DNA from: Acidobacteriota bacterium | Lineage (GTDB): Bacteria > Acidobacteriota > UBA6911 > RPQK01 > JAJDTT01 | Direction: 5' to 3' | Length of the DNA stretch: 64,000 bases | Assembly (NCBI GenBank): GCA_965217775.1 | Contig: CBDCJH010000002.1 | Coordinates: 1,344,001 to 1,408,000, forward strand | Shown here: in pieces, positions 3,401 to 46,108 of the stretch | Position numbering within the stretch: the stretch's first letter is position 1 | Layout: each line of letters begins with the position of its first letter | Translations under genes and position numbers: made by a program | The notes under the pieces: model-generated | What the model was told of the DNA's origin: nothing | Databases searched by the model: none | What the model saw: only the letters and a program-made list of their open reading frames with translations

Positions 3401-3530
3401 GGCGGCACGCGCCTTCGTTGAGTTGTCTCGGACCAACCAGGTCCTGGTCTTTACCTGCCACCCGACGGTGGTTGAATTATTCCAAGAGGCAGCGGGAGAG
3501 ATGAGCCCGGATTTGATCCGCGTTGGGTAG
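408..3530 (+). CDS. YhaN-like AAA/SMC-type ATPase with long coiled coil and central TM hairpin
   Basis: GTG at 408 gives 'MRIQGFRIEGFGRF', Walker A 'YGPNEAGKST', signature 'LSRGTREQLFLSLR', Walker B 'VVVDEVLVNFD', H-loop 'FTCHP'. Confidence 0.9.
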   Translation: MRIQGFRIEGFGRFADHAVGPFDHPVTLIYGPNEAGKSTYLAFIRTILFGFPRRLGNQHYPPLSGGRHGGRIDLVSGDGSRYSVHRIQGRGAGPVTTTGAGGENLDERVLAQLLGHHSRDVFESVFAFTLEELHSGDLLGKSSVNRQIYSAGMGVTKLPAVMRTLQSEREALFRKGGSVNRIARTARKLGEIEARLRGIATNAAAYGRLTTRLQEVEARLVALNQIRRHGQNRLDRRRQLQDAWEDWNDLITIERQLSELPAIDDFPADGIRRLEALEERLRGARREYDSARTSVEEVKSKTTVRIEHDAIVDRTDEVRNLGRLRGAFDQSVRDLPKRQAELENYQNDLAKTLRELGPDWDQQRLDHFDLSLAVREEISRHEERLRQAREGLGRSESDLEQAQARLNEASHSVERAKEELESAPRPKYDAAGIRRRRNQIRMARVQLDRYAREAQRAADLKRQLDGVYQTGSPKAASDMKWLPVLCAAFGIALAVAGTMAGGTVLAMGMVTSLFLIGLAVYLHVRNRSDSGMAESPIAGPIRRSLEAARRRLVTIRSELDETAAEMGLRGINESVLTGAEETLDAESSRLVQWERLREVLDRGKGSLQRRAARKDEKAENVERALRRVDAAKQAWEAWLGERSLRTTFNPEAMGELRGQVELGRNQFSEVRNWRQRITAIQEDIDSYTAMVASLASSFEVEFDPGDGQAVAAAADTLIDLHGRVAQRVRDRSNAADDLRMAERELQERYQQLSDAEAEMAGLLQSGGATDAEHFRRRAERFRQRTELGERKREVGGRLQRISGPGEHLQSLEERLENTDLQSILACINEVRDELAEADEEIQTLSTERGGIRNDLDRLIGEEESSGWRMERHLLLEQIRGHAREWVIRTLVHRLLETAQNKFERERQPGVVRHAERFFGRITGGRYPQVYAPLGERTIIVTDGTGRRKSPQELSRGTREQLFLSLRFGLIRELGQRTEPLPVVVDEVLVNFDPDRALRAARAFVELSRTNQVLVFTCHPTVVELFQEAAGEMSPDLIRVG

Positions 3531-3606
3531 ATTCCGGTCAAGTTTCCACGAAGGTCGGACAGGACCAGGTTCGGCAATCAGTGGAGGGTACTGGAACAGC
3601 GGTGAA

Positions 3607-3692
3607 CGTAGGGGCACCCCTTGTGGGTGCCCGCTGTCGCTCCTTGCTGATCGGCCCGGGCAGGGCGACCACACACAAGGGTCGCCCCTACG
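3607..3692. repeat. Inverted doublet of REP-like hairpins
   Basis: CGTAGGGGCACCCCTTGTGGGTGCCCG (3607-3633) and inverted AGGGCGACCACACACAAGGGTCGCCCCTACG (3662-3692); GTAG foot plus hairpin, also seen near 30160-30230, 38323 and 47690-47717. Confidence 0.8.
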
Positions 3693-3701
3693 CTCATTCC
3701 T

Positions 3702-3920
3702 GTGAAAACCGTGAAAACCGGGTTGACATTGGGTGTCCGCAACTTGTTCAATGTTGTTCCCGACGAGAACACAGTTGGACAGTCGCGGAGTGGGCGACTC
3801 GAAGATTCCGCTGGCAATTTGATCATCGACTCGCCGGGCATCTTCGTCTTCTCGCGCCGGTCTGCCCCGTTCGGCTTCAACGGTGGATTTCTCTACGCTC
3901 GCTACAGTGTTCGGTGGTAA
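3702..3920 (+). pseudogene. Orphan C-terminal fragment of a TonB-dependent receptor
   Basis: 'LTLGVRNLFNVVPD...APFGFNGGFLYARYSVRW*' resembles the last barrel strands of a TBDR with terminal aromatic residue; no upstream barrel coding sequence. Confidence 0.7.
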
Positions 3921-3958
3921 CCAATTGCAAATGTGAACGTGGAACGGAGTTGAAGCAG

Positions 3959-4792
3959 ATGAAGAAGAAGATCGCATCTCTCGCCATTTTGGTGTTCGGA
4001 TTTCAGGGCATGGCAGCAGCCCAGGATTCCATCTATTCGGCATCCGGAGATCTCGTCTTCGCCAGCAAGTACATCTGGCGCGGGCTGCGAGCGACCAATG
4101 ACTGGAGCCTGCAGCCGGCGATGACCCTGGGAATCGGCGGCTTCTCCGCCAATGTCTGGGGGACGATGGACCTGACCGCCGTAAACCCGGGCGATGCCTT
4201 GCCGATCCAGCCTGGTGACGGGCTCAAGGGGAAGTTTTCCGAAGTCAATTACGTCTTTTCCTACGATCACTCTTTTGAAGGCGCCACGGTCAGCGCGGGC
4301 ACCATTATCTATGTCTTTCCCGAACGGTCGGCTTCGCTGCCTGGGACCACCGAGATCTACGGAGGAGTGAGCCTGGATTCGGTGCCTCTGGCTCCTTCGT
4401 TTACTCTCCATGTGGATATGGACGAGAGCCAAGCCGGCGGTGGAAGCGCCGGACTGTACTTTCTTATCGCAGCCGGACACAGTTTCCCGCTCCAGCACGA
4501 CGTCCTGACCAGTTTCGACTTGTCCGCAACCGTGTCGCTCGTAAACGCCGGGTACACTGATTTCTTTTATAGTGTGAGTTCCGGCGGTTTCCATGACGCC
4601 AATATCACGGCGACCCTTCCCTTCACCATCAACGACAACTGGTCCGCCGGGGTTTTCGTCACCTATAGCGGCCTCATCGGCCAAGCGATTCGAGACAGCC
4701 AGTTGCAGGACCCGCGGCAACCAGCGAAACCTAGCGGCGCCTATCTGGCAGATACGCTCTGGGGTGGTTTCAGCCTGAGCGTCTCGTTCTAG
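3959..4792 (+). CDS. Outer-membrane beta-barrel protein (TIGR02001/Gcw_chp-like putative porin)
   Basis: Signal peptide MKKKIASLAILVFGFQGMAAA, motif 'SKYIWRGL...SLQP', terminal Phe 'GFSLSVSF'; GGAG RBS upstream. Confidence 0.75.
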   Translation: MKKKIASLAILVFGFQGMAAAQDSIYSASGDLVFASKYIWRGLRATNDWSLQPAMTLGIGGFSANVWGTMDLTAVNPGDALPIQPGDGLKGKFSEVNYVFSYDHSFEGATVSAGTIIYVFPERSASLPGTTEIYGGVSLDSVPLAPSFTLHVDMDESQAGGGSAGLYFLIAAGHSFPLQHDVLTSFDLSATVSLVNAGYTDFFYSVSSGGFHDANITATLPFTINDNWSAGVFVTYSGLIGQAIRDSQLQDPRQPAKPSGAYLADTLWGGFSLSVSF

Positions 4793-4822
4793 TCGTTGGG
4801 CGCTGAACCGAATCGTATTGCG

Positions 4823-5010
4823 ATGCAGTTACCAAGGGTTGTGTTGCGCGCCGTCAGCGGCGTTCTGGCGGCCGTGGTTCTCATCGGCATGGTGGCCGGG
4901 GCCGGGGCGCAGCCACGCCAGTCCCGCTGGTACGTGGGCGGAGGGGCCGGGGTGAACTGGCCGTCCAGGATGGAGCAGGAGGGCCACAATCTGGATACCA
5001 CCTGCTATCC
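4823..5010 (+). pseudogene. 5' half of an outer-membrane beta-barrel gene interrupted by the integrated element
   Basis: Signal peptide then 'WYVGGGAGVNW...HNLDTTCYP'; continues in frame at 14743 when the att repeats are joined. Confidence 0.85.
4999..5010 (+). repeat. attL core (12-bp direct repeat CACCTGCTATCC)
   Basis: Identical to 14731-14742; lies within GGATA-N8-TATCC (4993-5010). Confidence 0.9.
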
Positions 5011-5116
5011 CGATCAGCCGCTCCTGATAATTGACCATTATGGGGGATAGCTTGGGGATTATCAAATTCTCCCCGGCCGCGGTGGATGGGGAACATGTCG
5101 AAGGGAGGACTAGAAG

Positions 5117-5542
5117 ATGAGTTGCAAAGGACGATGTTTGGTCAGAACGAAGAACCCACGAACGGCGGAGGAGTTGATAAATTTGAGGCTCGATGGCCTT
5201 TGGGTCCGAGAGTTTCTGTGGCCGATGCCAAAGGACGGCGGCAGCGCCCACATCTGCCGGTCCTGTTACAAAAAGGCAGAGGTCATGCCGCAAGACGACG
5301 ACGCCAGACGGTTACGCGAGAGAAGGCGCGCCGCAGGCGACGGTCGGCACTCTACTGGTGACAACCGGATCATCGACTTGGTATTGGGGATCTCCATGCG
5401 ACTGGAGATCTGCCGTATACCGGGTTTCGACTTCATTTACTTCTGTGAGTGGTGCGAAACTCAAGAACTTGGTCTGATCGCTGACACAGAGGCTCTGGAG
5501 CGGCTGCCGGAAGATTGCCACTTCAAGAGCATCTCCGACTGA
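5117..5542 (+). CDS. Cys-rich hypothetical protein (possible zinc-binding)
   Basis: Strong RBS AAGGGAGGA; CxxxC, CxxC (CRSC, CEWC) pairs. Confidence 0.6.
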   Translation: MSCKGRCLVRTKNPRTAEELINLRLDGLWVREFLWPMPKDGGSAHICRSCYKKAEVMPQDDDARRLRERRRAAGDGRHSTGDNRIIDLVLGISMRLEICRIPGFDFIYFCEWCETQELGLIADTEALERLPEDCHFKSISD

Positions 5543-6191
5543 CGCCTGCGGTGAACTAGCCCCTGTCACCGGAAAATGGTAAGGTGAGGGCCGAGTCGGA
5601 CAGGGTGCTACCACACTGGGACTTTCAAGCTAACCCCTTGCACCCTGTCCGTGTTCCATCTTCTGTCAGGGGTTCCAGATAGAATTCCCGGCAGCTTGAA
5701 AGTTCTATCTCGGGACATTTCCAACATCCTGGATAACAGCCTCAAGCCGCGTTCGTTTGCTGTGGTCCATGCGCGGGCCGGACGCTCGATCAAGGCGATC
5801 TCCAACAGCGGGATCGACGGCGTGACACGGGACCTTCAAATCACGCGCGGCAACCCCCACGCAACGGGTAAACAGGCTCGTGCCTGCCTCGAAGCTGGGT
5901 CCAGGGCCGGAGGGGTGGTGGGTACAGTGGCCACCATGGAAATGTGCTGGACTACCGCAAGCAGGCAACTCCTGAACTAGCGGGCTCAAGATCTAACAGG
6001 GAAGTCAGACGGGGAACGGTTCACGCCTCGCGCGTAGGATCTGAAGACCCCTCTGATTTTTCCGATCCGCCGTAGGCGGGGGAGGAGAAAGCAGACGGGG
6101 TTCCCTAATTGCAGTACCCAATCTTTCCCCCGGTATGGTCCTGGGGTTAGTCAAGGGAGAAGGTGTGGTCAGAGGAAAAGGAGATTGAGTC

Positions 6192-6398
6192 ATGGCTGAA
6201 ACACTGTCCACTGAATTGGAAACCCTCCTCAGGCAAGAACGCATGATTCGTGAGTTCGTGCTGTCCCTTGATGGCAGTGACTCATTCACCCGTGAGATTC
6301 GTGATTTGGCGGAGGGACACCGCGTGGAGCAACTGAAGTCAATCCGGGACAATATCGAGAAGCAGGCCCAACCTGTGGTGAAGGGTCCATGCAAATAG
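6192..6398 (+). CDS. Small helical hypothetical protein
   Basis: RBS AAGGAG upstream of ATG; 68 aa with amphipathic helical composition. Confidence 0.6.
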   Translation: MAETLSTELETLLRQERMIREFVLSLDGSDSFTREIRDLAEGHRVEQLKSIRDNIEKQAQPVVKGPCK

Positions 6399-6426
6399 GC
6401 ACCAGCCTAATTGCAGGGTGTAGAAC

Positions 6427-6750
6427 ATGACGTGGCGAAAGGAGTCCGACATTGTGGACAACTGCCGACGCTGTGACGCCACCCTAAGCGATGGCTGCCT
6501 CCCTTCTCCTTGCGGCAAGCTGGAAGGCGGCTCTCAGGATTCCGGGGCCACATTGTGCCCCACGTGCCGAATGCTCTACTTCAGGGAGGCGGGAAAGCGA
6601 TCCGGCAGGATACGGCGACGGTGGCGGGAGGATCGGGATATCGGGATCGCCCACTTCAAGAAGGAGGGGATGACGAATAAACGGATTGCCGAGATTTCCG
6701 AGTGTTCCGAGCGCACTGTCTACTACGCCCTCAAGCGTCTTAACATCTGA
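6427..6750 (+). CDS. Zn-ribbon plus helix-turn-helix DNA-binding protein
   Basis: CRRC...CPTC, then 'GKRSGRIRR...GMTNKRIAEISECSERTVYYALKR' (HTH pattern). Confidence 0.7.
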   Translation: MTWRKESDIVDNCRRCDATLSDGCLPSPCGKLEGGSQDSGATLCPTCRMLYFREAGKRSGRIRRRWREDRDIGIAHFKKEGMTNKRIAEISECSERTVYYALKRLNI

Positions 6751-6940
6751 TCCTGCTACAATGAACCCCGCTTGAATCCAGAGCAACCAGGTCTCCATAA
6801 CATGACCTTGGAGGCCAACCAGGGCCGGGTCCATAGCTATGCTGCGACCAGGCTCGGCCCTGATCCTTCCCTCCTTCCTTCCCATCCTAAAAAGAAGTAC
6901 CGTCACCGGTCTTTTTACTAACTTCCAAGTGTGTTGATCT

Positions 6941-7240
6941 TTGATCGAGGGATTCTGCACACTCGAAATCGTGAGGACTTCAATCGTCAAGCGATGGGGA
7001 CCACGGACCACGACGCCTTCCTACTGGGGGTCTGTGTTGAGACCGGAATGGATCGCGTCCATGCGAAGGCACCGTCTCCACGAGCAGACCCGGCGGATTG
7101 CCTTGCCCTTCCTGGACCGAAACCAACCCGGTGCGCCTCGTAGTCTGATGTCCACGGAAGAGGCGTGGCTGCGGCTCAAGACTGCCGACCAGCTCATCCG
7201 CAAAGGCATCACCGAGTCCAGCAATGGAGAGGCCCGATGA
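6941..7240 (+). CDS. Hypothetical protein (start uncertain)
   Basis: Its stop overlaps the next start as ATGA (7237-7240), suggesting translational coupling. Confidence 0.45.
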   Translation: MIEGFCTLEIVRTSIVKRWGPRTTTPSYWGSVLRPEWIASMRRHRLHEQTRRIALPFLDRNQPGAPRSLMSTEEAWLRLKTADQLIRKGITESSNGEAR

Positions 7241-7623
7241 GCGTCCGGATCGGGATGGTCAATGAGAAGGAGGTCTTGTCCTCCATCGACCGGGTCATGC
7301 CCCGCGTTGAGACGGAGCTGACCACGGCCTTGGACGACGGCTTAGTATCAGCATTGCATCACTCTGAGCGCCGTGTGCCGGAGCGCACTGGTGATCTCAA
7401 GAGCACGGGCCGAGTGACCAAAACAGAGAAGGTAGGTGGCACTATCCTACGTGCTGAGATCGGCTATGGCGGCAAGGCGGCATCGGGACGGCAGGTTAAC
7501 TACGCCATCGAGCAGCATGAGAGCGTTCACAGTTCCGGAAGGAAGTACCTGCAAACCGCTATGGAACGTGCGGATCTTCCCGGTCGACTCGACAAGGCGA
7601 TGGCGAAGGCGCTGGGACTATGA
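7237..7623 (+). CDS. HK97 gp10-like neck/tail-completion protein
   Basis: 'RVPERTGDLKST...NYAIEQHE...GRKYLQTAME' follows the gp10 family pattern (PVxTGxL...YA..xE...xxL.PA); GGAGAGG RBS. Confidence 0.7.
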   Translation: MSVRIGMVNEKEVLSSIDRVMPRVETELTTALDDGLVSALHHSERRVPERTGDLKSTGRVTKTEKVGGTILRAEIGYGGKAASGRQVNYAIEQHESVHSSGRKYLQTAMERADLPGRLDKAMAKALGL

Positions 7624-7744
7624 CGGCGGCACCGGGGCACATAGTCACCTTGGGGACCCCTGTCCGGCTCGATCCGGCCCAGCCGGGCGGCGGGGTGGGG
7701 GTCAGCATCGAGTGCATGGAAAACGTTTTTACGGAGAGCCTGAA

Positions 7745-9412
7745 GTGAGCCTCCAGCGATACGAAAAGCGTCCATGTGGGTATTCGAGGTGTTCCAACCG
7801 CTTCGACGTCGTTGTGGGCCGTCGTGGGCGTCGTCGTGAGTATTGTCAGGCATCGTGCCGGGTGGCGGCCTGGAACCTGCGTAAACGGACCCATGAACCG
7901 CAGCCTGTGAAGGTGAAGGTTCCCAAGGACCCGTTCAGTGCATTGTGTTCGTGGGCGAAGGACACACTACGAATCCCTCCTGGACATCCCTTGTCCGGGC
8001 AGCCCATGTCCATTCCCAGGTTCGCCAAGCCCTTCCTCAAAGATGCGCTGGACCCTTCCAAATCCGAGTGCGCTCTGGTTTTGGGAAGGAAGAACGCAAA
8101 ATCTGCCATCTGCGCTGTGATTCTCTTGGGGTTTCTTGTGGGTCCCGTTCGGGCACATGGCTGGCGAGCGGGAATCTGTTCCATCTCCAAGGCGAAATCC
8201 AGGGAGTTGCGGGACCAGGTGGAGGACATCGCCAAGGCATCGGGACTGTCCGAAGACATCCTCTTCCGGAGATCCCCTTATCCGGGGTCCATCGAATCGA
8301 GCACCGGCAAGGTGGAGATCCTTTCAAGTGAAGGTGGTGGAGGACATTCTTCTTCCTTCGACCTTTCCATCATCGACGAAACGGGATTGCTCAAGGAGAA
8401 GGACCGGGGACTGGTCAACAGCATGAGGTCGGCGACTTCGGCGAAGGACGGCAAGGTTCTTCATCTGAGCATCTATGGAGACTCTCCTTTCATTCCGGAG
8501 TTGATCGGGATGAGGCACGAGCCCTTCATCAGCGTTCACGTTCATCAGGCGGACGAGGGTGCCCGTCTCGATGACCCGAAGCAGTGGAAGAAAGCGAATC
8601 CGGGGTTGGGGACCATCAAATCCATCTCCTACATGGAGAAGGCGGCAAGGAGGGCCATGCTCACCCCAAGCGACGAGGCCCACTTCCTGGCTCAGGACAT
8701 GAACAGGCCGGGGTCTCCGGATCGGATGATGCTTTGTTCGCCGTCGGACTGGGAACGGTGTCGGGTTCCAGTTCTTCCCCCGCGTTCGGGTCCCTGCCGC
8801 ATGGGGGTGGACCTTGGGGGCAGTTCTGCCATGACCTGCGCGGTTCTGTGGTTTCCCGACACGGGCCGCATGGAGACCTATGGAGCCCTGCCGGGGGTGC
8901 CGTCGATCAAGCACCGGCAACGGAAAGACCAATCCCGCTACGATCTCATGTGCCGATCCGGGGAGTTGCAGGTCTATGCAGGACATCGAACCGTTCCGGT
9001 GGACAAGTTCCTCCGTTACATGGCGGATGTCGTAAAGGGGGAGAATCTGGTCTCCATCGGTTCAGACCGATACCGGGATGCTGAAACGAGGCAGTTCGTC
9101 GACCAATCCGGACTCCCGTGGTTGAGGAAGTGGCTGTGGAGAGGCACGGGAGCATCGGCCACGGCGGACGGCAGCCATGACATTCGATCTTTCCAGCGTG
9201 CGGTCCTGAACCAGGAGATCAAGCACGACGGCGGCCTGATGATGTCATCGGCCATCAGTAACTCCAGCTTGAGGTTCCGGAACAACAACCCGGCCCTGGA
9301 GCGTTCTGGCCCTGGTCGAGTCGATGCCCTGCAAGCGGGAGTCATTGCCGTGGGGACCAGCACGGTCAAGGTGGCGAGATCCAGTTGGCGATACCGGGGG
9401 CGGGTTGGATGA
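7745..9412 (+). CDS. terL: Terminase large subunit (HK97-type) with N-terminal Cys4 zinc-finger extension
   Basis: Walker A 'GRKNAKS', Walker B 'LSIIDETG', 'WKKANPGLG', nuclease 'GVDLGGSSAMT', C-terminal 'RVDALQA'; GTG start at 7745 after GGAG. Confidence 0.9.
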   Translation: MSLQRYEKRPCGYSRCSNRFDVVVGRRGRRREYCQASCRVAAWNLRKRTHEPQPVKVKVPKDPFSALCSWAKDTLRIPPGHPLSGQPMSIPRFAKPFLKDALDPSKSECALVLGRKNAKSAICAVILLGFLVGPVRAHGWRAGICSISKAKSRELRDQVEDIAKASGLSEDILFRRSPYPGSIESSTGKVEILSSEGGGGHSSSFDLSIIDETGLLKEKDRGLVNSMRSATSAKDGKVLHLSIYGDSPFIPELIGMRHEPFISVHVHQADEGARLDDPKQWKKANPGLGTIKSISYMEKAARRAMLTPSDEAHFLAQDMNRPGSPDRMMLCSPSDWERCRVPVLPPRSGPCRMGVDLGGSSAMTCAVLWFPDTGRMETYGALPGVPSIKHRQRKDQSRYDLMCRSGELQVYAGHRTVPVDKFLRYMADVVKGENLVSIGSDRYRDAETRQFVDQSGLPWLRKWLWRGTGASATADGSHDIRSFQRAVLNQEIKHDGGLMMSSAISNSSLRFRNNNPALERSGPGRVDALQAGVIAVGTSTVKVARSSWRYRGRVG

Positions 9413-9711
9413 AGCGGTTGCACTCTCGAGAAATGGGGCGCCTGAGACGGCGGCTTTACAAGGAGCAGCAGAACAGGTGCGCGAAGTGTGGGCTGTTGTT
9501 CTTGTTGAGGGAGATGGAGGTCCACCACGTTCAGCCACTCGCCGAGGGCGGAACCCACGACGACGATAACGTCCAGCTTTGGTGCCTGGATGACCACCAT
9601 GAGGCCACTCGATATCAGAACACCGATCCCGCCATTCGTGACCAGAAGAGAGACTGGCGGGTGTTTCTACGAACGGAAGAACAAAGAATCTTTAGGAGGG
9701 TTCGAGCATGA
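9409..9711 (+). CDS. HNH endonuclease (gp74-like packaging cofactor)
   Basis: 'CAKCG...EVHHVQPLAEGGTHDDDNVQLWCLDDH'; ATGA overlaps with terL and capsid genes. Confidence 0.9.
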   Translation: MKRLHSREMGRLRRRLYKEQQNRCAKCGLLFLLREMEVHHVQPLAEGGTHDDDNVQLWCLDDHHEATRYQNTDPAIRDQKRDWRVFLRTEEQRIFRRVRA

Positions 9712-10979
9712 CCACGAAACAGAAACTGGAACTCCGGCGGAGTGAAGTCAGATCCAGGCTGGCCGAGATCGCCGGTCTGGACGAGTTGACGGACGAGATC
9801 CGCACCGAGTCCAAGGCACTGGAAACCGAGTTTGCCGACTTGGAGACGAGATACAGGGCGGCTCTGCTTTCCGAGCAGGACAACGGCAAGCTGGACGAGA
9901 CCGATACCAAGGGCCGGAAGCTCCGGAGCTTGGTCAAGAGGGCATCCCTTGTGAGCTATCTCTCGGAGAGCGTGCGCCAGAACGAGGTCCGGTCCGGATC
10001 TGCGGAGGCGGAGCTCAGGTCCGAGTTGTTGGGTAAGAACGCCCAGCCCGGACAGGTCCCCCTGGCGGTGCTCGCTCCGGAGGTCGTGAAGGAACGGAAA
10101 CGGGAGACTCGCGCCACCGATACGGCTACGGATGTGGGGGCCATCGGAATTCCGAACCGGCAAAACCAGATCATCCGGAGGGTGTTCTCGCAGAGCGCCA
10201 CTTCGTTCTTGGGAATCAGAATGCCCAGCGTCGCAATCGGCGAAACGTCGTTCCCGTACCTGAGCGCCGGGGTCAGTCCTGCGATGAAGGCCAAGGGGGC
10301 GCGTGCGGATGCGGAGGCGGCCACCTTCTCGGCCGAGTCCGTTGGGCCAACCCGTCTCAGTGCCCGATACCTGTTGAGGGTCGAGGACCTGCACCGTCTG
10401 GCCGGTATGGAAAGTGCGCTCAGGGCTGATTTGCGCGGCTCCCTGAGTGAAAGCCTTGATGCCCAGACCCTTGTTGGCGACGGAGTCGCCCCGAACGTGA
10501 CCGGGTTGTTGTCTGAACTGCCTGCGGCTGCGGCAGCGGGTGCGGCGGAGTTCTCGTGGCAGGAGGCGGTGCAAGTGATCGCCGATCAGGTCGACGGAAA
10601 ATATGCCGCCGATCCGAGCATGGTCCGGATGCTCTGTGCGAGTGATTTGTACTCGAAAATGGCCATCCGATTGGTGGCGGCCTCCTCAAGCGGCTCAAGT
10701 GTGAGCGCGGCATCGAGGTACATCCAGGAAATCAGCGGCGGACTGCGAGTCAGCGCGAACATGCCAGCCGCCGACTCCAACATCTCCACGGTGCTGTTAA
10801 GTCGGATGGGACACGCCGGCGCTTTTGCCCCGATCTGGGGAAATTCGTTCGAGCTCATTCGCGACCCGTATAGCCATTCGGCCACTGGCGAGGTGGCTCT
10901 GACGGCGATCATTTTGTGGGCATTCGTGGTGCCCCGTGAAGACGTTTTCGCACTGCGGAAGCTGAGAATCGCGGTCTGA
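9708..10979 (+). CDS. Major capsid protein, HK97 fold, with N-terminal coiled-coil delta domain
   Basis: Coiled-coil N-terminus, 'LDAQTLVGDGVAPNVTGLL', 'LIRDPYSHSATGEVALTA...VPREDVF'. Confidence 0.85.
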   Translation: MTTKQKLELRRSEVRSRLAEIAGLDELTDEIRTESKALETEFADLETRYRAALLSEQDNGKLDETDTKGRKLRSLVKRASLVSYLSESVRQNEVRSGSAEAELRSELLGKNAQPGQVPLAVLAPEVVKERKRETRATDTATDVGAIGIPNRQNQIIRRVFSQSATSFLGIRMPSVAIGETSFPYLSAGVSPAMKAKGARADAEAATFSAESVGPTRLSARYLLRVEDLHRLAGMESALRADLRGSLSESLDAQTLVGDGVAPNVTGLLSELPAAAAAGAAEFSWQEAVQVIADQVDGKYAADPSMVRMLCASDLYSKMAIRLVAASSSGSSVSAASRYIQEISGGLRVSANMPAADSNISTVLLSRMGHAGAFAPIWGNSFELIRDPYSHSATGEVALTAIILWAFVVPREDVFALRKLRIAV

Positions 10980-10982
10980 GTC

Positions 10983-11405
10983 ATGCCGATCGGCATCTTG
11001 AGAGGTCCAGCCGGAGCCGGTAAGTCCCAGTGGTTCGACGAGAACGCCGAACCGGGCGACTTGTGGCTTGACATCACGGCAATCTGGGCCGCCGTCCGGG
11101 GTCTCGAAAGGGGTCCCGATGGTCGCTATCCGGTGCGCTTGGACGACGACCAGGGCCTACGAATGGCTGCCTATCTGAAGGCCACCGGGATCGCCTTTGC
11201 CGAGCGTGAGGGCCTGGACGGATGGGCTACGACCAGTTCATCGGCACCGGAGGCCGTGGAGCGGATTCGGGAGCAGGGGGCAACGGGTCGGGCGCAAACC
11301 ATAGATCCTGGTGAAGCCGTCGTTCGGCGCAGGCTTGCCGATCCCGACACCGGCGAGTTGGACCCTCAATGTGATTCCGCGCTGTTGCGTTGGTACAGCG
11401 TATGA
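10983..11405 (+). CDS. Small P-loop NTPase/kinase-like protein
   Basis: Walker A 'ILRGPAGAGKSQW'; 140 aa; ATGA overlap with the protease gene. Confidence 0.75.
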   Translation: MPIGILRGPAGAGKSQWFDENAEPGDLWLDITAIWAAVRGLERGPDGRYPVRLDDDQGLRMAAYLKATGIAFAEREGLDGWATTSSSAPEAVERIREQGATGRAQTIDPGEAVVRRRLADPDTGELDPQCDSALLRWYSV

Positions 11406-11851
11406 AGATTGTTACGAACGTTGAAATCCGGGAGTCGTCCAAGGGAGTCAAGCGGCTCCACGCCGTCCTCATCCAAGAGGGCCGAGCCTCCACTGGAGGC
11501 CGTTCGGAGGTGATCATACCCGGAGCAATCACATGGCCCGATGCCGGGATTTCTTTAAGGGCCGTGCATCGGGGTCCCGCCATAGGAGTGGCGCATCCGG
11601 CGAGGCATCCGAACGGGGAAATCAGGATTGCCACGTTAGCGACCGGTGCCGTGATCCAGGCTGTCGAGTCAGGCAAGACCGGCATGAGCATCGAGTTCAC
11701 GGCGCTTCGCGAGAAAACCACCAAAGGCGGAATCCGTGAGGTACAGGCTGCTTATGTGGATGCTGCCGCACTCGTGAGCAATCCCGAATATGAGCAGGGC
11801 CGGGCCGAGATCCGATCCCGGAAGCGGAGGTCACAGCTATGGCGACTCTGA
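11402..11851 (+). CDS. HK97-type prohead maturation protease
   Basis: 'EVIIPGA...LRAVH...TGMSIEF...ALVSNPEY' matches the His/Ser motifs of the U35 protease family. Confidence 0.8.
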   Translation: MKIVTNVEIRESSKGVKRLHAVLIQEGRASTGGRSEVIIPGAITWPDAGISLRAVHRGPAIGVAHPARHPNGEIRIATLATGAVIQAVESGKTGMSIEFTALREKTTKGGIREVQAAYVDAAALVSNPEYEQGRAEIRSRKRRSQLWRL

Positions 11852-12231
11852 GCCCCTGGCCCGAAAGTGTGGGAGACCGAAACGCGGCTCTCCGTGAACT
11901 GGAACGCCATCTTAAGTATCCCGAGATCGACATCGACATCGGGGAGGAACGGGAGCGGCTGGAACTGGTCGGGGAGGCGGCTTCGGCCCTGGTCGAGCGG
12001 TACAGTCCTGGAGCTCCACAACGTATTCGGGATTTGGCCGTCGTCAGGACGTGTCAATACCTGCTTGCCCGATCCGGTGCCAGCGTGTCCAAGGTGACGG
12101 AGGAGTTGGGGGACTGGAACCACACCTTGGAATTCATGCCCAGTATGGTTTCGGCGCTCCGGGCGTCCGGATCAATGTCCCTATTGAGTCCCTTCAAGAT
12201 CCGCAGGGCGCGAAAGGTGACGGCGGCATGA
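11839..12231 (+). CDS. Head-tail connector (gp6-like)
   Basis: 'AASALVERY...APQRIRDLAV...LLSPFKIRR' is a gp6/gp15-like pattern; located in the head cluster. Confidence 0.65.
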   Translation: MATLSPWPESVGDRNAALRELERHLKYPEIDIDIGEERERLELVGEAASALVERYSPGAPQRIRDLAVVRTCQYLLARSGASVSKVTEELGDWNHTLEFMPSMVSALRASGSMSLLSPFKIRRARKVTAA

Positions 12232-13304
12232 AGTGGCAGGGACGGGAGGTCGACTTCGGTTTACGTGAGACTCGATCCAGCGGGTACACGGACCGGTTGA
12301 CCCAGCTCCTGGTGAGTCAGGCATCCACCGTGACCGAGACCGATCCCTCCCGGACTGGCGCTCTGGAGGTCTGCGCCGGGATTTGGGGCCGCGCCTTCGC
12401 ATCCGTGAAAGTGGAGCCGCAGACGGCGGCGCAGGTGCTCTCTCCCAACGTCCTGAACTTGATCGGCCGCCAACTGATCCGACAGGGTGAAGTCCTGTTC
12501 CGGGTCCAGGTGGTCAATGGTCAGCGCGTCCTGACCCCTTCGAGCGCCTGGGATGTCTCGGGAGGCGCGGACCCGTCCACATGGAGATTCACATGCTCTT
12601 TCAGCGGACCCGACTCCGAACAGGAGGCTACGCTGGAGTGGGACGAGGTGGTTCTGCTGACCTGGGCCACCGAGCCTGGAGCGCTCTACCGGGGCCTGGG
12701 ACCGCTTGAGGTGGGAGACTTGACCGGATCCCTGTGTGGGTCCTTGGAGAAGTCCCTCAGCAGCGAAATGGCGACGCCCAACGGATACTTGCTGACGGTC
12801 CCACAAGTGGACGAAGTGCCGGATGACGAGACCGATCCACTCGAAGATATGAGGGCCGATTTGAAGGGGCTCGACGGCGGTCTTTCATTGGTCGAAACGA
12901 CTCAAGGCGGGGGCGGCGAAGGCCGGGTAGCGGCTCCGGCGCGGGATTGGGTTCCGTCCCGGCTCGGTCCGTCTCCTCCCAAGGCGTTGTGCGACCTGCG
13001 CGAGGATGTCCACAGGACGGTCTTGTCCGCCTGCGGGATCTCCCCGGCGATGGTCGGCGGGCGTTCGGACGGAACTGCAAGGCGAGAAGCCTACCGAACA
13101 TTTGCGCATCTGTCCTTGACCCCAATGGGCCGGATGGTTGCAGCGGAACTGGCGGACAAGCTGGAGATCCCTGGCCTTCGATTCAACTGGTCGAACCTGA
13201 TGGCGGGAGACATCACAGGCAAGGCGAGGGCGTTCAGGAGCTTGGTTCAGGGCGGCATGGACGTAGCGAAAGCCGCCAGCCTCTCGGGGCTGATGACGGA
13301 TTGA
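12228..13304 (+). CDS. Phage portal protein (HK97-like, 358 aa)
   Basis: 'LIRQGE', 'YRGLGPL', 'VLSACGISPAMVG', 'F..LSLTPM...ELADKL'; ATGA overlap with the upstream gene. Confidence 0.85.
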   Translation: MKWQGREVDFGLRETRSSGYTDRLTQLLVSQASTVTETDPSRTGALEVCAGIWGRAFASVKVEPQTAAQVLSPNVLNLIGRQLIRQGEVLFRVQVVNGQRVLTPSSAWDVSGGADPSTWRFTCSFSGPDSEQEATLEWDEVVLLTWATEPGALYRGLGPLEVGDLTGSLCGSLEKSLSSEMATPNGYLLTVPQVDEVPDDETDPLEDMRADLKGLDGGLSLVETTQGGGGEGRVAAPARDWVPSRLGPSPPKALCDLREDVHRTVLSACGISPAMVGGRSDGTARREAYRTFAHLSLTPMGRMVAAELADKLEIPGLRFNWSNLMAGDITGKARAFRSLVQGGMDVAKAASLSGLMTD

Positions 13305-13442
13305 CGATAAACCCGCAGACCAGGACATGACGCTGGCAGCGGGCCGTCACTTGAAGATACACAGGTGATGGAAAACTCCCCGGTCGTGGGAACGGCGGGG
13401 AGTGAGTCAGGTTGTCCATGATGAGTTCGACCTGACAACAGT

Positions 13443-13471
13443 GGGGCGGGTGCTTCGAACACGCCCGCCCC
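13443..13471. terminator. GC-rich hairpin between convergent portal and integrase genes
   Basis: GGGGCGGG...CCCGCCCC stem; no clear U-tract. Confidence 0.35.
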
Positions 13472-13656
13472 ATCTTCCTCCCCCGCACGTAAGGGACCCT
13501 GCCCCATGGTTGGCCGGGCGTAGACTACCGGTGTCGGAGTGCACCCTACGTCCGCCACACGATTCCCTGGCCATCGGCGGCCCGTGCTGTCCTGGAGGTG
13601 TCAAAGCCATACCTGAGGACCCTCGAAACGCTCAGGCGCTCCTCTTGACTGGGCTT

Positions 13657-14640
13657 TCAGTCATCTTCCATGAACCGCGCGACGGCGTTCTTCTTGGCCC
13701 GTTCTCCCGAGACGTAATGGACGACCATCGCCGGACTTTTCCAGCCGCCGATCTCGGCAACGTCTTGCAAGCTAGCTCCCCGCCGCGTCAGTTCTTGAGC
13801 ACATCCTCTCCGCAAGGAATGGCCTCGGACTCGTTTCAACTCCACCCCGGCCTGCCGGGCGCGGACCCGGATAATGCGGCGCACGGTGTCGGTATGCAGA
13901 TCTTTGTCCAGAACGTTCGTGTTGGTGCAAGGACGGAAGAGCGGCCCGGTCTGGATTCGGGCTCTCTTGATCCACGCTCGCAGCAGCCGGGACGCGCGTT
14001 TCGTCAGGTAGCCATTACGTCCCGATCCCTGCGGGTCCGTCTTGCTCCGGCGGACGACGATCAGCGCCGATCCGTCCGCTTGAAAGGACACGTCTTCGAT
14101 TTCCAGGGCGCAGAGCTCACCGATCCGCAGGCAGCCGTCGTACATGACGCTGAGCAAGGCGGCGTCCCGGGTCCCCCAGAGCGGCCGGAACGTGGACTCG
14201 ATGATGGCCGACCCCACCATCTCCCGGACTTCATCGGCGCTCAGTCCCCGAGCCAGCTTGGTGCCCCGGTTCCAACCTTCTTTGGAGACGATACCGAGGA
14301 CTTCCTTGGTCTGCTCTCCAACCGGATCCAGCTCGTCTTTGGCCCTGGACCGCCATCTCGCGGCGTTGACGATCCCCCGGACGCTGGCCGGGGCGAGGCT
14401 GTCCGCGTCGAAGCGATGCTCGCAATACTCGGCCAGCAGGTCGTCGGTCAGATCACGACCTGCCAACCACTCGTCCAGTTTTCTCCAGACGTTTCGATAG
14501 GTTCGGCGGGAATTGGCGCTCAGCTTGCGGAGCTTGCGCCGGTAGCGGATGTCAGCCCGTGTCTGCATGACTGGTGTCCTTTCGGGTTCGGGTTCCCGTA
14601 CCGCGCGGCAGGCCGGGGTGAATTGAAGGATTCGTGCCAT
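13657..14640 (-). CDS. Cre-like tyrosine recombinase/integrase
   Basis: Catalytic R ('RDAALL..GCLRIGEL'), K ('RRSKTD'), HxxR ('GHSLRRG'), W ('GGWKS') and Y ('MVVHY'); RBS GAGGAGG upstream of the ATG at 14640. Confidence 0.92.
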   Translation of the reverse strand: MARILQFTPACRAVREPEPERTPVMQTRADIRYRRKLRKLSANSRRTYRNVWRKLDEWLAGRDLTDDLLAEYCEHRFDADSLAPASVRGIVNAARWRSRAKDELDPVGEQTKEVLGIVSKEGWNRGTKLARGLSADEVREMVGSAIIESTFRPLWGTRDAALLSVMYDGCLRIGELCALEIEDVSFQADGSALIVVRRSKTDPQGSGRNGYLTKRASRLLRAWIKRARIQTGPLFRPCTNTNVLDKDLHTDTVRRIIRVRARQAGVELKRVRGHSLRRGCAQELTRRGASLQDVAEIGGWKSPAMVVHYVSGERAKKNAVARFMEDD

Positions 14641-14730
14641 GTGTAACCTCCTCGGTTGCCCTCTACCTATCTCTTTCACCAAAACGAAAACGATCGAGGG
14701 CATTATTTTTTGAGGAGCGGTCTCGGAGAG

Positions 14731-14742
14731 CACCTGCTATCC
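14731..14742 (+). repeat. attR core (CACCTGCTATCC)
   Basis: Identical to 4999-5010; about 90 bp upstream of the integrase start. Confidence 0.9.
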
Positions 14743-15583
14743 GGACGAGGACTGCGATCGTCTACCTGGCGGCGGACCGCCAGGCTACCGCTGGCGCTAT
14801 GATGTCGAAGGGAAGAACGGAACCGCGTACGAGTTTTCCGTCGGCCGCAGGTTCAGCCATCTCCGAGTGGAATTTTCGGTCACCCGGCAGAAGAACGACC
14901 TCGAATCGGACTTTTCCGGGATCAGCTACGTGGACGGATCCCCCATCCTCTCCATCGAAACCGACCTTCAGGCGGAAGGAAGTTCCTCGGTCGGGGATCT
15001 GATCGCCCGCACGCTGTCGTTGAACCTCTACTATGACTTTCCGATGGCGTCGAATCGCTTTGCGCCTTATCAGCCCGTGGCAAAAGTCATCACGGCATTC
15101 GACCGTCCCTGCATCCCGGCGGACGGCGTTGCGATTCGGGCACATACTCCCGGTATGCACCCGAATCGCGCCTTGTCCGGCGGGCGCAGGAACGGTCTCG
15201 GTGCTCGCGGGACTTTCACCACGGACTGTTATGTCGGCGCAGGACTGGGGGCTTCCTTTGTCGAAGTGACCGATCTGTTTTATGAGAGCTCGTACAGCGG
15301 TCCCGGCGGGCCCTACGATCCTCCCTTGGAGTTTTACTCCAGTCGGACCAACGAGAACCTGTCCGATACGATTCTGGCGAAACACCTGTACGTCGGCGTC
15401 GACTTCGGATTGAGTGAAAGGACGCTGTTGGGCGTGAAGTTGTCCCACCTGCGGATGGGGGACTTCGCGGCCACGGGGGGCTACGACTTCCATCCGATCC
15501 CGGGATTGACCAGCGAGACCCGGTTCAGCGGCATGAACCACTGGTTGCTGGGGCTCACCGTCAAGTTGTTGCTCGGCCGCTGA
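14743..15583 (+). pseudogene. 3' half of the interrupted outer-membrane beta-barrel gene (contains in-frame MITE)
   Basis: 'TCYPDEDCDRLP...LRVEFS...LNLYYDF...FAPY[MITE]YVGAGLG...LYVGVDFGLSERTLLGVK...WLLGLTVKL', an OmpA/OmpW-like barrel pattern. Confidence 0.85.
15071..15228 (+). mobile_element. 158-bp MITE, copy 1 (TSD TTAT)
   Basis: 18-bp imperfect TIRs CAGCCCGTGGCAAAAGTC / GACTTTCACCACGGACTG; TTAT at 15067-15070 and 15229-15232. Confidence 0.9.
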
Positions 15584-15631
15584 CCGGCAAACACCGACCT
15601 GGAACCAATCTGGGCCGTGCCATACCCGTGG

Positions 15632-16447
15632 TCAGAGTTCCAGCTTGCCCTCGAAGACCATATCCTTGAGCTTGAACTTCTTGGCGACCTTACGACCCAT
15701 GAGCCGTGTGATGAACTCGATGTTCTTTTCCTTCACGATGATGGGGTTCGACGTGGGGCGGGGAAAGACGAAGATCAACTCGAAGCCGGACTGGCCGGTT
15801 CGCGCGTTCAGAAGATTAACCTGTTCCTTTCTCATCTGAACGGCCTGAAGAGAAATGGGCTCGCGGCCCTTGACCTTGAGGAAAGATTCGGACCTGAGGC
15901 GTTCGATGACCGCCTGCCGCCGATCGGGGGGAATCCTCGTCATGCGGGCGGGCAGTCCGGAGACGCCGATGATGAAGTAGTTCTCTTCCGGAGCCAGGAG
16001 TTCGGCCAACTCGGCCGTCGTCTCGGCCTGATCTCCGAACCGGGCTCGAGCGAATGCCTGCTTGATGGGCAGGGCGCTGTACCATCGCAGCGTCAGATTG
16101 ATGGCCGGGGGAAACCCCCGTCCCATTCCACGACCGCCAAAGCCTCGCCCCCCGCCTCGACCTCCGCCACCTCGACCTCCGCCGCCTCGACCCCCACCCG
16201 TGCCTAAGCCGCGCCCCGACCGGTTGGGCCCGTCGCGACGACCCGTGCGCATGGTGGTTCCAGTGACTCCCGGGCGCCGCTGCAAGCTCACGGTCAGCTC
16301 CTTTGCCCAGGGGGACTTGTTGAGCATCCGCATCACTTCCTTCTCGGACCAGTCGGAGTACGCGGATTCCTTCCAGAATTTACGGGGCCAGACCGGGGTC
16401 GTGGTCAGCAACAGGATGCAGGAGACAAGCAGGAACGATTTCCTCAT
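15632..16447 (-). CDS. Secreted hypothetical protein with RGG-rich insert
   Basis: Signal peptide, 'FWKESAYSDWSEKEVMRMLNKSPWA', Gly/Arg tract, C-terminal 'FKLKDMVFEGKLEL'. Confidence 0.75.
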   Translation of the reverse strand: MRKSFLLVSCILLLTTTPVWPRKFWKESAYSDWSEKEVMRMLNKSPWAKELTVSLQRRPGVTGTTMRTGRRDGPNRSGRGLGTGGGRGGGGRGGGGRGGGRGFGGRGMGRGFPPAINLTLRWYSALPIKQAFARARFGDQAETTAELAELLAPEENYFIIGVSGLPARMTRIPPDRRQAVIERLRSESFLKVKGREPISLQAVQMRKEQVNLLNARTGQSGFELIFVFPRPTSNPIIVKEKNIEFITRLMGRKVAKKFKLKDMVFEGKLEL

Positions 16448-16482
16448 GGGCTAACCTCGTTTCTCAGGCGACGGCCACGAAT

Positions 16483-18570
16483 TCAGACCCCATCCGGAAC
16501 GATCTGGAAGTCCTCAGCCAGACGGTGCCGCTGGGATGCGGCGAAGCGCACCTCCACCACAATTCGATATTTGCCGTGGCCGAGTTGTTGCAGCGGGAGC
16601 CGTGCATTGACGCTGGACGCACTTTCCAATCCCCCAGGAAGGGCCTTCCAAACTCCTTCGTATATCTTCCCCCCCGCGGCGTTCAGAATCAAGATCCTGT
16701 ATTCCCCGTCACCGTCATCGGCGGTTTCCACCTGACCGTGCAGGTAGAGGGTTTCGTGCCGGTGAAAGCGAGCCCCGACCCGGGGAATGAGAACCCGGGC
16801 TCCGATTTCGAGGGGATTGGCGATCTCCGTCACCTGCTTGCCCGTCTTGATCCGGTAGCGGGATTGAGACGCCGATTCCTCCAGCTTTCCGGCCAACACC
16901 AGGGAGCTGGACTGAATTCTCCCGCGCGTCGGAAGGTCCAATCGATGGTCCATTTGGGACAACAGTCCCGACCGGTTGTCCCGGAGCAGCACCCGAAGCA
17001 CGTATCGACCAGGTTCCAGGACCAGAAGGTTCTGGTAGACGAAACGGGTGTCCTTCTCCCCCTCCTGGCGCCGGCGGATCTCCACCCGGTCCCGGAGCCC
17101 GGCCCGAGCCACGTCCTGCAGGTCGCGCGCCAGGATGATCACCTCCAGGTTGAGCCGTCCTGACTCGTCGAAGGACGGGAATTCGGCTCGATCGAATGCC
17201 GCCAGGACGGGAACCCGGTACCGCCCCTCGAAATCGGGGAAGTACTCCGCCGAGATCTCCACCGGGAATTCGATCTTGGGGGCACCCTCCAGGACGGTCT
17301 GGAGCAGCTTGAATTCCTTTTCGGGAGTGCTCAGGGCGGCGTAGGACTTGTCCGCATAGTAACCCTGGCGGTAGGCCAGACGGATCCTGGGGCGGCTGAC
17401 GGTTACCTCGACCTTTCGGAACCGTCCGTCGCTGGGAGGAGTGGGAGCGTAGTAGCCGAGCAGGTAGTAGTGGCTCGAGTCCTCCTGGGCTCTGCGGAAG
17501 ATCTTTCCCAGGTCGTTGTCGTCCAGGAGCACCGCACCGCCGGTTTCGGCGGCCAGGGTGATCAGCCCCTCCCGCGACTGACTGAGCCGGACCAGTTGGT
17601 TGAGGTCCGCTCGGCCCGTGAAGATGCCTTGTCCTCCTCCCGAGCGGTGGGCACCGCCCCCGGGGGCAAGGGCCACCAGTCCCCGGGCGTCGACGGAATA
17701 GATGCTGATATTGGCCCGATTGCAGAGATCGGCGGTCCAGCGGAGCTGGTCGTCGTTCTCGATGCCCCGGCTGGTGAGTCCGGCAGAGAAGTACACCAGG
17801 GCCTTCCGTCCGGGAACGTCGCGGAAGGCATCGGCGATGGCCTGAATGGCGCTGAGCTGATGGTTGCTCTCGAACAGAGCGAATTCGGTCTCGTCGGCCA
17901 GAAACTCCCCGTCGGCGGCCGCATCCGAATCTTCATCCGGCAGCGAGACGTCGGTTTCCCGATCCTGTTGGGAGAGGCGTCCCAGAGCCTGGGACAATTC
18001 CCTGGAATCGGACGTGAAATCCACCAGAAGCTCGAGTCCCTGGTCGTATGCCAGGACGGCAACGGCGTCTTGCGGCGTCATTTCCCGGTCCAGGAATCGG
18101 AGAGCCGACTCGCGCATCATCCGCGAGTCCTGGATGTTGGCGTTGGAGAAGTTGAAGAGGAGGATCAGGTATCGCTTCTCCGGCGTGGCCGGAAAGTCCG
18201 ACTCCGGTTCGGAAGTAACTGTCGTCGGAGGAGGCTCGGGCAGGCCCCGGCGGACGGTGACGCGCTCGCTGGTGAGCGGCAGGAAGACTTCTTGGAAGTA
18301 CCCGATCTTCTGGGAGATTCCCTCCTCAAGAAGGGTAAAATCCTCCGATTTCAGATCCCGGACGGGCCGGCCCTCGGAATCCCGGACCTGGACGTCCACC
18401 AGAATCAGGTTGGTCCTCACGCGGAAGCGGACGGGGGAGTCCTGGCTCCACAGGCAGTGCCAAGCCAAAACGCAGACCATGGCGGAAGAAACCATCCGGG
18501 CCGGGTGCCGGGCTTTGGGCGCGGGCCGTCTCGGAAGATCCCTGTTTCCAGTTCTGGCAAGTAGCTTCAT
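16483..18570 (-). CDS. VWA-domain protein of the Acidobacterial (TIGR03436-like) type
   Basis: 'FRVRTNLILVDVQVRDSEGRPVRDLKSEDFTLLE', 'PGRKALVYFSAG', 'LAAETGG', 'YYLLGY...DGRFRKVEV'; start uncertain. Confidence 0.85.
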   Translation of the reverse strand: MKLLARTGNRDLPRRPAPKARHPARMVSSAMVCVLAWHCLWSQDSPVRFRVRTNLILVDVQVRDSEGRPVRDLKSEDFTLLEEGISQKIGYFQEVFLPLTSERVTVRRGLPEPPPTTVTSEPESDFPATPEKRYLILLFNFSNANIQDSRMMRESALRFLDREMTPQDAVAVLAYDQGLELLVDFTSDSRELSQALGRLSQQDRETDVSLPDEDSDAAADGEFLADETEFALFESNHQLSAIQAIADAFRDVPGRKALVYFSAGLTSRGIENDDQLRWTADLCNRANISIYSVDARGLVALAPGGGAHRSGGGQGIFTGRADLNQLVRLSQSREGLITLAAETGGAVLLDDNDLGKIFRRAQEDSSHYYLLGYYAPTPPSDGRFRKVEVTVSRPRIRLAYRQGYYADKSYAALSTPEKEFKLLQTVLEGAPKIEFPVEISAEYFPDFEGRYRVPVLAAFDRAEFPSFDESGRLNLEVIILARDLQDVARAGLRDRVEIRRRQEGEKDTRFVYQNLLVLEPGRYVLRVLLRDNRSGLLSQMDHRLDLPTRGRIQSSSLVLAGKLEESASQSRYRIKTGKQVTEIANPLEIGARVLIPRVGARFHRHETLYLHGQVETADDGDGEYRILILNAAGGKIYEGVWKALPGGLESASSVNARLPLQQLGHGKYRIVVEVRFAASQRHRLAEDFQIVPDGV

Positions 18571-18591
18571 GGACACTCGGGGACCTCGGCG

Positions 18592-22841: not shown

Positions 22842-22904
22842 ATCGTATTTACCTCCGGTTGCCGTCTGTTCCCGTGGTTGTCTCAGTCGCTGTCACCGAT
22901 TCAT

Positions 22905-22929
22905 TACGGGAGCGGGTCCCCTTTGTTTC
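22905..22929 (-). promoter_or_regulatory. Putative ECF-sigma promoter GAAAC-N16-CGTA
   Basis: Minus strand reads GAAAC aaaggggacccgctcc CGTA, 64 bp upstream of the 22841 start; matches the SigW-type consensus. Confidence 0.55.
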
Positions 22930-22993
22930 GTTCCGAGGCGTCTCCACCGGTTTGACCGGTTCCGGGGGCCGGTGTTATTAGAGAGCCGCGCTC

Positions 22994-25330: not shown

Positions 25331-25334
25331 AAGG

Positions 25335-46071: not shown

Positions 46072-46108
46072 CCTTCACTGGTAGCCTGCGCCGCAGAAAT
46101 TGATCTAA

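Follow-up and report, generated by a model that had tools for sequence, protein, structure and literature searches.

The question raised by this locus is whether a phage-like element that sits inside the gene for an outer-membrane beta-barrel protein simply inactivates that gene, or whether the gene could be switched on again when the element leaves. The locus lies in a stretch of 64,000 nt from an Acidobacteriota bacterium (contig CBDCJH010000002.1); this whole stretch is referred to as the window, and all positions are counted from its first letter. Within it, a 9.7-kb element separates the left part of the gene from its right part. We consider it probable that this is a case of negative lysogenic conversion, in which a mobile phage-like element has integrated site-specifically in the barrel gene and the protein has been lost. 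By this mechanism, a Cre/Xer-like recombinase would cross over within a 12-nt core and insert the 9.7-kb element at codons 60-63; the left piece would then end after 13 foreign codons and the right piece would be left with neither start codon nor signal peptide, so that the protein would be lost, and recombination between the two core copies would restore the frame exactly.

The split gene and its integration site

The left half of the beta-barrel gene (4823..5010, plus strand) comprises codons 1-62 and two further nucleotides, covering the putative signal peptide, strand 1 and the start of predicted loop 1, and is identical to the first 63 residues of the protein P0177. From its ATG at 4823, the left open reading frame (ORF) reads MQLPR...HNLDTTCYP, continues through 13 element-derived codons and stops at 5048-5050. 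The right half (14743..15583, plus strand) runs from the third base of codon 63 to the stop codon and has a miniature inverted-repeat transposable element (MITE) inside it; the right piece reads ...STCYPDEDCDRLP... in one frame down to the stop at 15581-15583. There is an in-frame stop at 14711-14713 and no start codon between that stop and the TCYP codons, and the first possible start of the right half is a GTG at 14867, whose product would have no signal peptide. The gene is therefore knocked out, as the right half has neither a start codon of its own nor a signal peptide.

When 4823-5010 and 14743-15583 were joined by script, they gave 1029 nt and 342 codons with a single terminal stop. An earlier note, made from the letters of this DNA, had claimed that the element splits one gene with a rejoined ORF of 1029 nt (342 aa; 288 aa without the MITE), and its numbers are exact. 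Without the 54-aa insert, the rejoined protein of 288 aa is identical to P0184 at 285/288 positions and to the intact orthologue P0003 at 282/288. A tblastn search with P0003 against the whole window recovered two pieces only (residues 1-65 and 58-288), showing that the element brings no replacement half, as had also been proposed.

The two halves meet the element at an exact direct repeat of 12 nt, CACCTGCTATCC, which encodes T-C-Y-P and is taken as the core of the attachment (att) sites. Its attL copy lies at 4999..5010 and its attR copy, identical at 12/12 positions, at 14731..14742, within a wider repeat (4993-5013 and 14725-14745) that is identical at 18/21 positions and has a start-to-start spacing of 9,732 nt. 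The 12-mer by itself is unremarkable, with other exact 11-13-nt repeats present in the same 11 kb; it is accepted as the core because of its position at the alignment break against a syntenic locus, L001. The insertion point is thus at codons 60-63 (T-C-Y-P) of the 288-codon gene, and the element-specific DNA (5011..14730; 9,732 bp with one core copy) is absent from L001. This locus belongs to an Acidobacteriota chromosome (OZ241897.1) that came from a scan of species-representative genomes, and it is colinear with the window over 121-5010 (72-82% identity) and 14725-25570 (82-88%). Its two alignments to the window share 18 bases at the repeat, the 9.7 kb are missing, and the intact gene of L001 holds the exact 12-nt core. 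Since L001 is colinear on both sides, lacks the element and carries the core in an intact gene, it represents the empty site.

The exact core occurs at the equivalent gene position in 4/80 loci (L013 at 10195, L016 at 10153, L024 at 10153 and L001 at 10177), and, as these include an Alphaproteobacteria assembly, potential attB sites exist well outside the host lineage. Around the core, no lox-like dyad symmetry stood out in an attP site built in silico or in attB, where the best arrangement (8-9/13) was no better than elsewhere in the flanks. A sigma-70-like promoter match (TTGATA-17-CATAAT, 10/12; 5037..5065, minus strand) lies just within the left end of the element and points out of it across attL. 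It is the sole match in 3400-7500, and none was found in 13200-15700, so that none stands upstream of the integrase in the integrated state; in the circularised element, the promoter-like site would lie ~120 nt upstream of the integrase ATG. As a lead, the integrase might be expressed mainly after excision or entry, with the proviso that this is a consensus match and host promoters may differ.

Empty and occupied alleles

To see the site in its population, we used exact look-ups in a protein collection; the comparator genomes are all metagenome assemblies, and proteins were placed together when they came from contigs of equal size. Counted in this way, split alleles number five (the window and four further assemblies, all at the same codon) against 11 read-through sequences, the latter being eight 288-aa sequences together with P0175, P0176 and P0186. 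Junction peptides with an element-derived tail are found in P0200 (52,823-nt contig), P0199 (10,954) and P0201 (18,777); all three read ...TCY(P/S)DQ(P/S)LLI..., and P0200 has S for P at codon 63. Truncated right halves free of the MITE are P0178 (52,823-nt contig) and P0179 (18,326-nt contig), and integrases occur on contigs of matching size (P0191, 52,823; P0190, 18,326; P0189, 18,777). The integrases of these elements are 88-96% identical to one another.

Two element-free proteins, P0183 and P0182, match the split alleles P0178 and P0179, respectively, without a single difference over the shared 184 aa. The window allele is on a separate, MITE-bearing haplotype, in common with P0187; P0186, from a contig equal in size to that of the MITE-bearing P0187, reads straight across TCYPDEDC and carries a frameshift. 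All four combinations of element and MITE thus occur in the population, which needs repeated integration, excision or recombination. Because diverged variants of the element sit on haplotypes that are also found element-free, the element appears to be active at the site, or to have been so until recently, and excision presumably still occurs; this haplotype pattern is the best available evidence of such activity.

The element-derived tails differ among the split alleles: in the window the frame ends in ...DQPLLIIDHYGG and a stop, P0199 reads into a family of 111-aa ORFs, and P0201 has an unrelated tail (the window region concerned is 5011-5542). From one split allele to another, the cargo at the left end is thus variable, and the core has no fixed right end.

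Beyond this population, tblastn of the integrase, large terminase, capsid and portal against the 80 homologue loci found no related element within 10 kb of the species-representative homologues, and the element family is accordingly seen only in the species-level lineage. As to whether related elements target homologous outer-membrane genes, they do so at the same codon in four further assemblies and were not found at the 80 homologue loci. A further search, aimed at relatives shorter than the intact protein, gave two matches, P0201 and one C-terminal fragment, and so no trace of the element in more distant homologues, this search being limited by its word index. Relatives have lost the gene by other routes: the homologue in L025 breaks off after residue 122, and those in L027 and L028 are each divided over two reading frames. 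These disruptions, with that of P0186, suggest that the gene is dispensable or counter-selected, although part of them are perhaps assembly errors. In L025, the DNA after the truncation (10001-12892) is unrelated and includes an IS3-type transposase of two ORFs (11574-11987 and 11975-12892).

The target protein and the element

A search with the right half of the gene gave 37 matches, including 14 full-length homologues of 281-293 aa. All 14 are colinear across the junction, with C61, Y62 and P63 invariant, and both window halves are near-identical to P0003 and to seven other 288-aa proteins of the same 90% cluster. Intact orthologues in related genomes, which the earlier note had suggested looking for, are thus at hand in these 14 homologues and the syntenic L001, and its view of a single gene interrupted at TCYPD survives, since every one of the 14 runs through that point without a break. 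At residue 226, the window allele has V (HLYVGVDF; 15398-15412) where 14/14 homologues and the other cluster members have A (HLYAGxDF), and this A226V change may hint at relaxed constraint on the interrupted copy.

The two window halves alone matched no Pfam family, and the family is visible only via the intact homologues. PF13505 (OMP_b-brl) is matched by 13/14 and PF01617 (Surface_Ag_2) likewise by 13/14; the P0003 scores are 40.0 bits (cut-off 28.7) and 27.9 bits (cut-off 22), respectively. An AlphaFold2 model of P0003, built on the 14-sequence alignment, has a mean predicted local distance difference test score (pLDDT) of 77.6 and a predicted template modelling score (pTM) of 0.71, and shows an N-terminal helix (3-24) followed by strands only. 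Foldseek against the PDB returned 80 chains at E <= 0.001, and those listed are outer-membrane barrels; the top matches, Legionella porin III, OmpA, Pla, NspA, OprG, OmpW and Ail, are barrels of 8-10 strands. The barrel strands that had been read from the letters are therefore in agreement with the Pfam family, the model and the Foldseek matches. The protein resembles the small barrels of the OmpA/Opa/OmpW type in its Pfam scores above the cut-offs and in its barrel fold with long strands, but it has 6-14% identity to solved structures and a query-normalised TM score of 0.49 or less.

At the N-terminus, basic residues, a hydrophobic run and A-G-A before Q30 can be seen by eye, and, with the predicted helix 3-24, these suggest a putative signal peptide. 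When the topology is assigned by rule (both termini and the short turns on the periplasmic side), eight long strands result, with predicted loops at 58-76, 126-138, 195-206 and 254-264 and turns at 101-102, 162-168 and 232-235. The split site (residues 60-63) would then be the tip of surface loop 1, a segment modelled with low confidence (pLDDT < 50 at 59-66 and 69-72). Residues 52-82 are the most conserved part of the protein: of 49 invariant columns, 18 fall here, among them those of two cysteines that lie six residues apart. Surface loops are usually variable, whereas the loop 1 motif D-T-x-C-Y-P-x-x-x-C is strongly conserved here. The recombinase probably settled on this site because no other stretch of the gene is as conserved.

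The full-length homologues at L001-L028 have 37-80% identity and come from assemblies labelled Acidobacteriota, Nitrospinota, Binatia, Latescibacterota, Alphaproteobacteria and Gammaproteobacteria, the last including Candidatus Poriferihabitaceae and Candidatus Foliamicus. For a small surface barrel, so wide a taxonomic range is unusual, and it suggests that the gene has spread horizontally between bacteria that occur together.

The MITE in the right half (15071..15228, plus strand; 158 bp) has the terminal inverted repeats CAGCCCGTGG and CCACGGACTG and is flanked by a TTAT duplication at 15067-15070 and 15229-15232. Together with the 4-bp duplication it adds 162 nt, that is, 54 in-frame codons between Y172 and V173 of the 288-aa protein, and it is missing from L001 and from 14/14 homologues. 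Three more copies lie in the window (46106-46269; 54175-54338, minus strand; 59373-59528) with 84-99% identity, and the duplications of the four copies, taken from the alignment, are TTAT/TTAT, CTAA/CTAA, TTAC/CTAC and CTGG/CTAG. The MITE-encoded peptide alone explains 22/37 of the right-half search matches, in unrelated proteins (an integrase, transposases, TPR and sialidase-like proteins and others), from which it follows that the MITE is abundant in the lineage and often lies within ORFs as an open frame. Its parent may be IS5-like, to judge by its duplications and by peptide matches in PF01609 proteins. In the predicted fold of the MITE-bearing right half, the flanking strands are kept (86-102 and 166-189 in right-half numbering) and residues 106-163 are disordered (pLDDT 26-38). 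On the topology above, the insert would lie at the periplasmic start of strand 5, and it might be tolerated, although the prediction is weak.

The recombinase of the element is a Cre/Xer-like tyrosine recombinase of 327 aa (13657..14640, minus strand; Pfam Phage_integrase PF00589, E 1.5e-22) that adjoins attR. Its ATG at 14640 is preceded by GGAGG, and the 327-aa form is that in the protein collection. The best solved relatives are Cre structures (E 3.2e-13), aligned over residues 118-326, and the six catalytic residues of Cre (R, K, H-x-x-R, W and Y) are all aligned to identical residues; matches to the NCBIfam families XerA, XerD and XerC were all below their cut-offs. Its closest known counterparts are Cre of phage P1 and the Xer family of simple tyrosine recombinases, and it is similar to Cre in its size and catalytic residues; unlike in Cre, the att core here consists of 12 identical nucleotides and shows no clear lox-like 13-8-13 symmetry.

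Of the remaining genes, those that could be named, all on the plus strand, belong mainly to a head and packaging module. The large terminase TerL (7436..9412) matches PHROG 9 (E 1.4e-45) and Pfam TerL_nuclease (E 1.3e-09), and is followed by an HNH endonuclease (9385..9711; Pfam HNH, E 2.1e-10), an HK97-type major capsid protein (9708..10979; NCBIfam TIGR01554, E 6.7e-09; Pfam Phage_capsid, E 3.3e-06) and a portal protein (12051..13304; Pfam Phage_portal, E 3.1e-12). Because ~190 nt of the long TerL ORF are shared with the ORF before it (7165-7623), the true start of TerL is uncertain and probably lies downstream of 7436. The ORF at 10983-11405 has a weak match to a PHROG labelled small terminase (E 1e-07), which the HNH protein matches too, and a small helix-turn-helix protein (6427..6750; Pfam HTH_23, E 4.6e-06) is a possible regulator. 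The head genes in 7165-13304 follow an unusual order, in which TerL, HNH and capsid come first, then a 140-aa P-loop-like protein and two ORFs without a name, and finally portal. All recognisable genes of the element are full-length open frames, and six to eight ORFs stayed unnamed even at Pfam E <= 1 and with NCBIfam. Among the 14 element ORFs, searches of Pfam, PHROGs and NCBIfam gave no match to tail, holin, lysin or lysis, replication or excisionase families; tblastn of the capsid against 50,697 phage records found no match, and an Rfam scan of 4700-15700 found no family.

On both sides the element is flanked by host genes. A MipA-like outer-membrane protein (3953..4792, plus strand; Pfam MipA, E 3.8e-05, 24.4 bits against a cut-off of 24.2) is the upstream neighbour, in synteny with L001, and its end at 4792 is separated by 31 nt from the ATG of the split gene at 4823; being only 31 nt apart, the two genes are probably co-transcribed. 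Further upstream is a 1061-aa coiled-coil P-loop protein (345-3530), and downstream a 697-aa protein (16483-18576, minus strand) that by eye is like the VWA-related proteins common in Acidobacteria.

Weighing the alternatives

Several points weigh against negative lysogenic conversion by a mobile element. Excision in this genome is predicted from the sequence, and the 14 element ORFs gave no match to an excisionase or a recombination directionality factor. There is no recognisable regulation or replication module beyond the one helix-turn-helix protein, and the element could be a decaying remnant. Moreover, the dyad symmetry at the att core is weak, the same-contig placement of proteins was judged solely by equal contig size, frameshifts such as that of P0186 may be errors of metagenome assemblies, and tblastn placed a related element at 0/80 homologue loci. 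If the element were indeed a defective prophage remnant, immobile and fixed in a dead gene that is now a pseudogene, the missing tail, lysis, replication and excisionase genes, the capsid unmatched among phage records, and the MITE and A226V of the window allele would all fit. We regard this as unlikely, as the element has full-length open frames, a complete integrase active site and att cores identical at 12/12, and diverged variants at one site on haplotypes that are also empty need repeated integration or excision; a head-only gene set is, according to parts of PMC10085698, also typical of a capsid-forming satellite. That the element was mis-joined into the gene during assembly is hardly credible: the source is probably a metagenome-assembled chromosome, as its closest relatives are, with the proteins of the window on a contig of 6,289,849 nt, but the boundaries fall on an exact repeat beside the integrase, the halves are in frame, and the same junction peptides occur in four other assemblies.

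A true phage regulatory switch (active lysogeny) would go further than negative lysogenic conversion, with non-lytic excision driven by a cue, production of the protein and later re-integration. It would be served by the position of the element within coding sequence, the frame restored by precise excision in silico, the intact catalytic residues of the recombinase and the four combinations of element and MITE in the population, and Cre-like recombinases can run in both directions without accessory factors. The right halves of the MITE-free split alleles are identical to intact alleles, with no decay, and, as a lead, the left-end promoter-like site would be able to drive the integrase only once the element is an excised circle, which would favour re-integration. 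However, the polymorphism is equally expected from ordinary gain and loss, the MITE and a substitution at an invariant position suggest relaxed selection rather than a maintained switch, and the other disruptions of the gene, in P0186, L025, L027 and L028, fit a dispensable one. A regulated switch therefore seems improbable to us, and a dedicated one is not needed to explain the data. The earlier note had called integration a knock-out, which holds as the right half is without a start, and had further proposed that excision could switch the gene back on, which is poorly matched by the lack of a detected excisionase and by the MITE and A226V. Switching back on is doubtful in this genome because the rejoined gene keeps the MITE (54 aa) and A226V; restoration is more plausible in the MITE-free split alleles on other contigs.

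The gene might also be an adaptive target, if its product were the receptor for particles or helper-phage tails and integration gave superinfection immunity. Small beta-barrel proteins are common phage receptors, the target is the tip of predicted loop 1 in the most conserved segment, and the gene has repeatedly been lost in this and related lineages; yet sequence conservation suffices as a reason for its use by a recombinase, and which side of the barrel is extracellular was decided by rule. We think this quite unlikely, and a phage-receptor or host-interaction role for the protein is pure speculation, the only hint being the conservation of the targeted loop. Very unlikely in our view is a combination of these ideas, in which a tail-less, capsid-forming satellite of Acidobacteriota has a Cre-like integrase specialised on the conserved, disulfide-bearing tip of loop 1 of a receptor found in several phyla and forms an on/off receptor switch in uncultured symbionts. 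If this were true, integration would remove the receptor on which the satellite or a helper phage of it depends, superinfection would be excluded, and the receptor would return upon excision. In summary, the locus is most economically explained by negative lysogenic conversion: the recombinase happens to use a conserved sequence, a protein whose loss may matter is no longer made, and reversal is possible.

Comparison with known systems

In an uncultured and little-studied phylum, the locus offers a clean, well-controlled natural example of site-specific integration knocking out a gene, together with a testable attB/attP pair for a Cre-like recombinase, and it flags a repeatedly lost outer-membrane family with an unusually conserved surface loop. 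Should excision prove to be conditional, the group would have its first switch of this kind on a surface protein; otherwise the case is one of ordinary negative lysogenic conversion.

As an element, its closest counterparts may be the phage-inducible chromosomal islands of the capsid-forming type (cfPICIs), which parts of PMC10085698 describe as integrated elements of ~10 kb with integrase, HTH, HNH, TerL, portal and capsid genes and without tail or holin, reported there mostly in Proteobacteria and Firmicutes. The element here is alike in having integrase, HNH, TerL, portal, capsid and a regulator-like helix-turn-helix gene with no tail or holin match in its 14 ORFs, and unlike in its gene order (TerL-HNH-capsid-...-portal) and its Acidobacteriota host. 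A primase-replicase, clear small terminase (TerS), protease and head-tail adaptor or connector were not detected in it with Pfam, PHROGs or NCBIfam, and divergence could hide them. A full-text literature search for phage satellites in Acidobacteriota gave nothing relevant and one unrelated review. The element is thus possibly satellite-like, with a defective prophage as the alternative, and as a head-only element it may extend phage satellites to Acidobacteriota.

As for the interrupted gene, no equivalent case of a prophage inactivating an outer-membrane gene was found among the titles and abstracts of the best-matching literature. Sa3int prophages of Staphylococcus aureus come close: in passages of PMC6597384, they inactivate the beta-toxin gene hlb without supplying a substitute, excision restores the gene, and carriage is polymorphic. 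Both cases share a tyrosine integrase, a hit in the coding sequence of a secreted or surface product and polymorphism among strains, whereas Sa3int are, in those passages, complete phages with cargo whose conditional excision has been measured, and the element here has only a head and packaging module and an uncultured Acidobacteriota host. The same passages define a phage regulatory switch by cue-triggered non-lytic excision followed by retention or re-integration (PMC6597384).

Other known elements are tied to a defined programme, such as phagosome escape or sporulation, which is not evident here. In Bacillus subtilis, the mobile skin element interrupts sigK and its excision rebuilds the frame. 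Precise excision likewise rebuilds the interrupted frame for the comK prophage of Listeria and for SP-beta in spsM of B. subtilis, according to parts of PMC7397523 and PMC5499854. SP-beta uses a serine integrase with a directionality factor, whereas the present element has a tyrosine recombinase and no evident factor of this kind. Gene-interrupting elements whose excision restores the gene are therefore well known, and the novelty of this case lies in its host group, in an outer-membrane gene as the target, in the head-only element and in an unusually complete natural series of empty, occupied and variant alleles.

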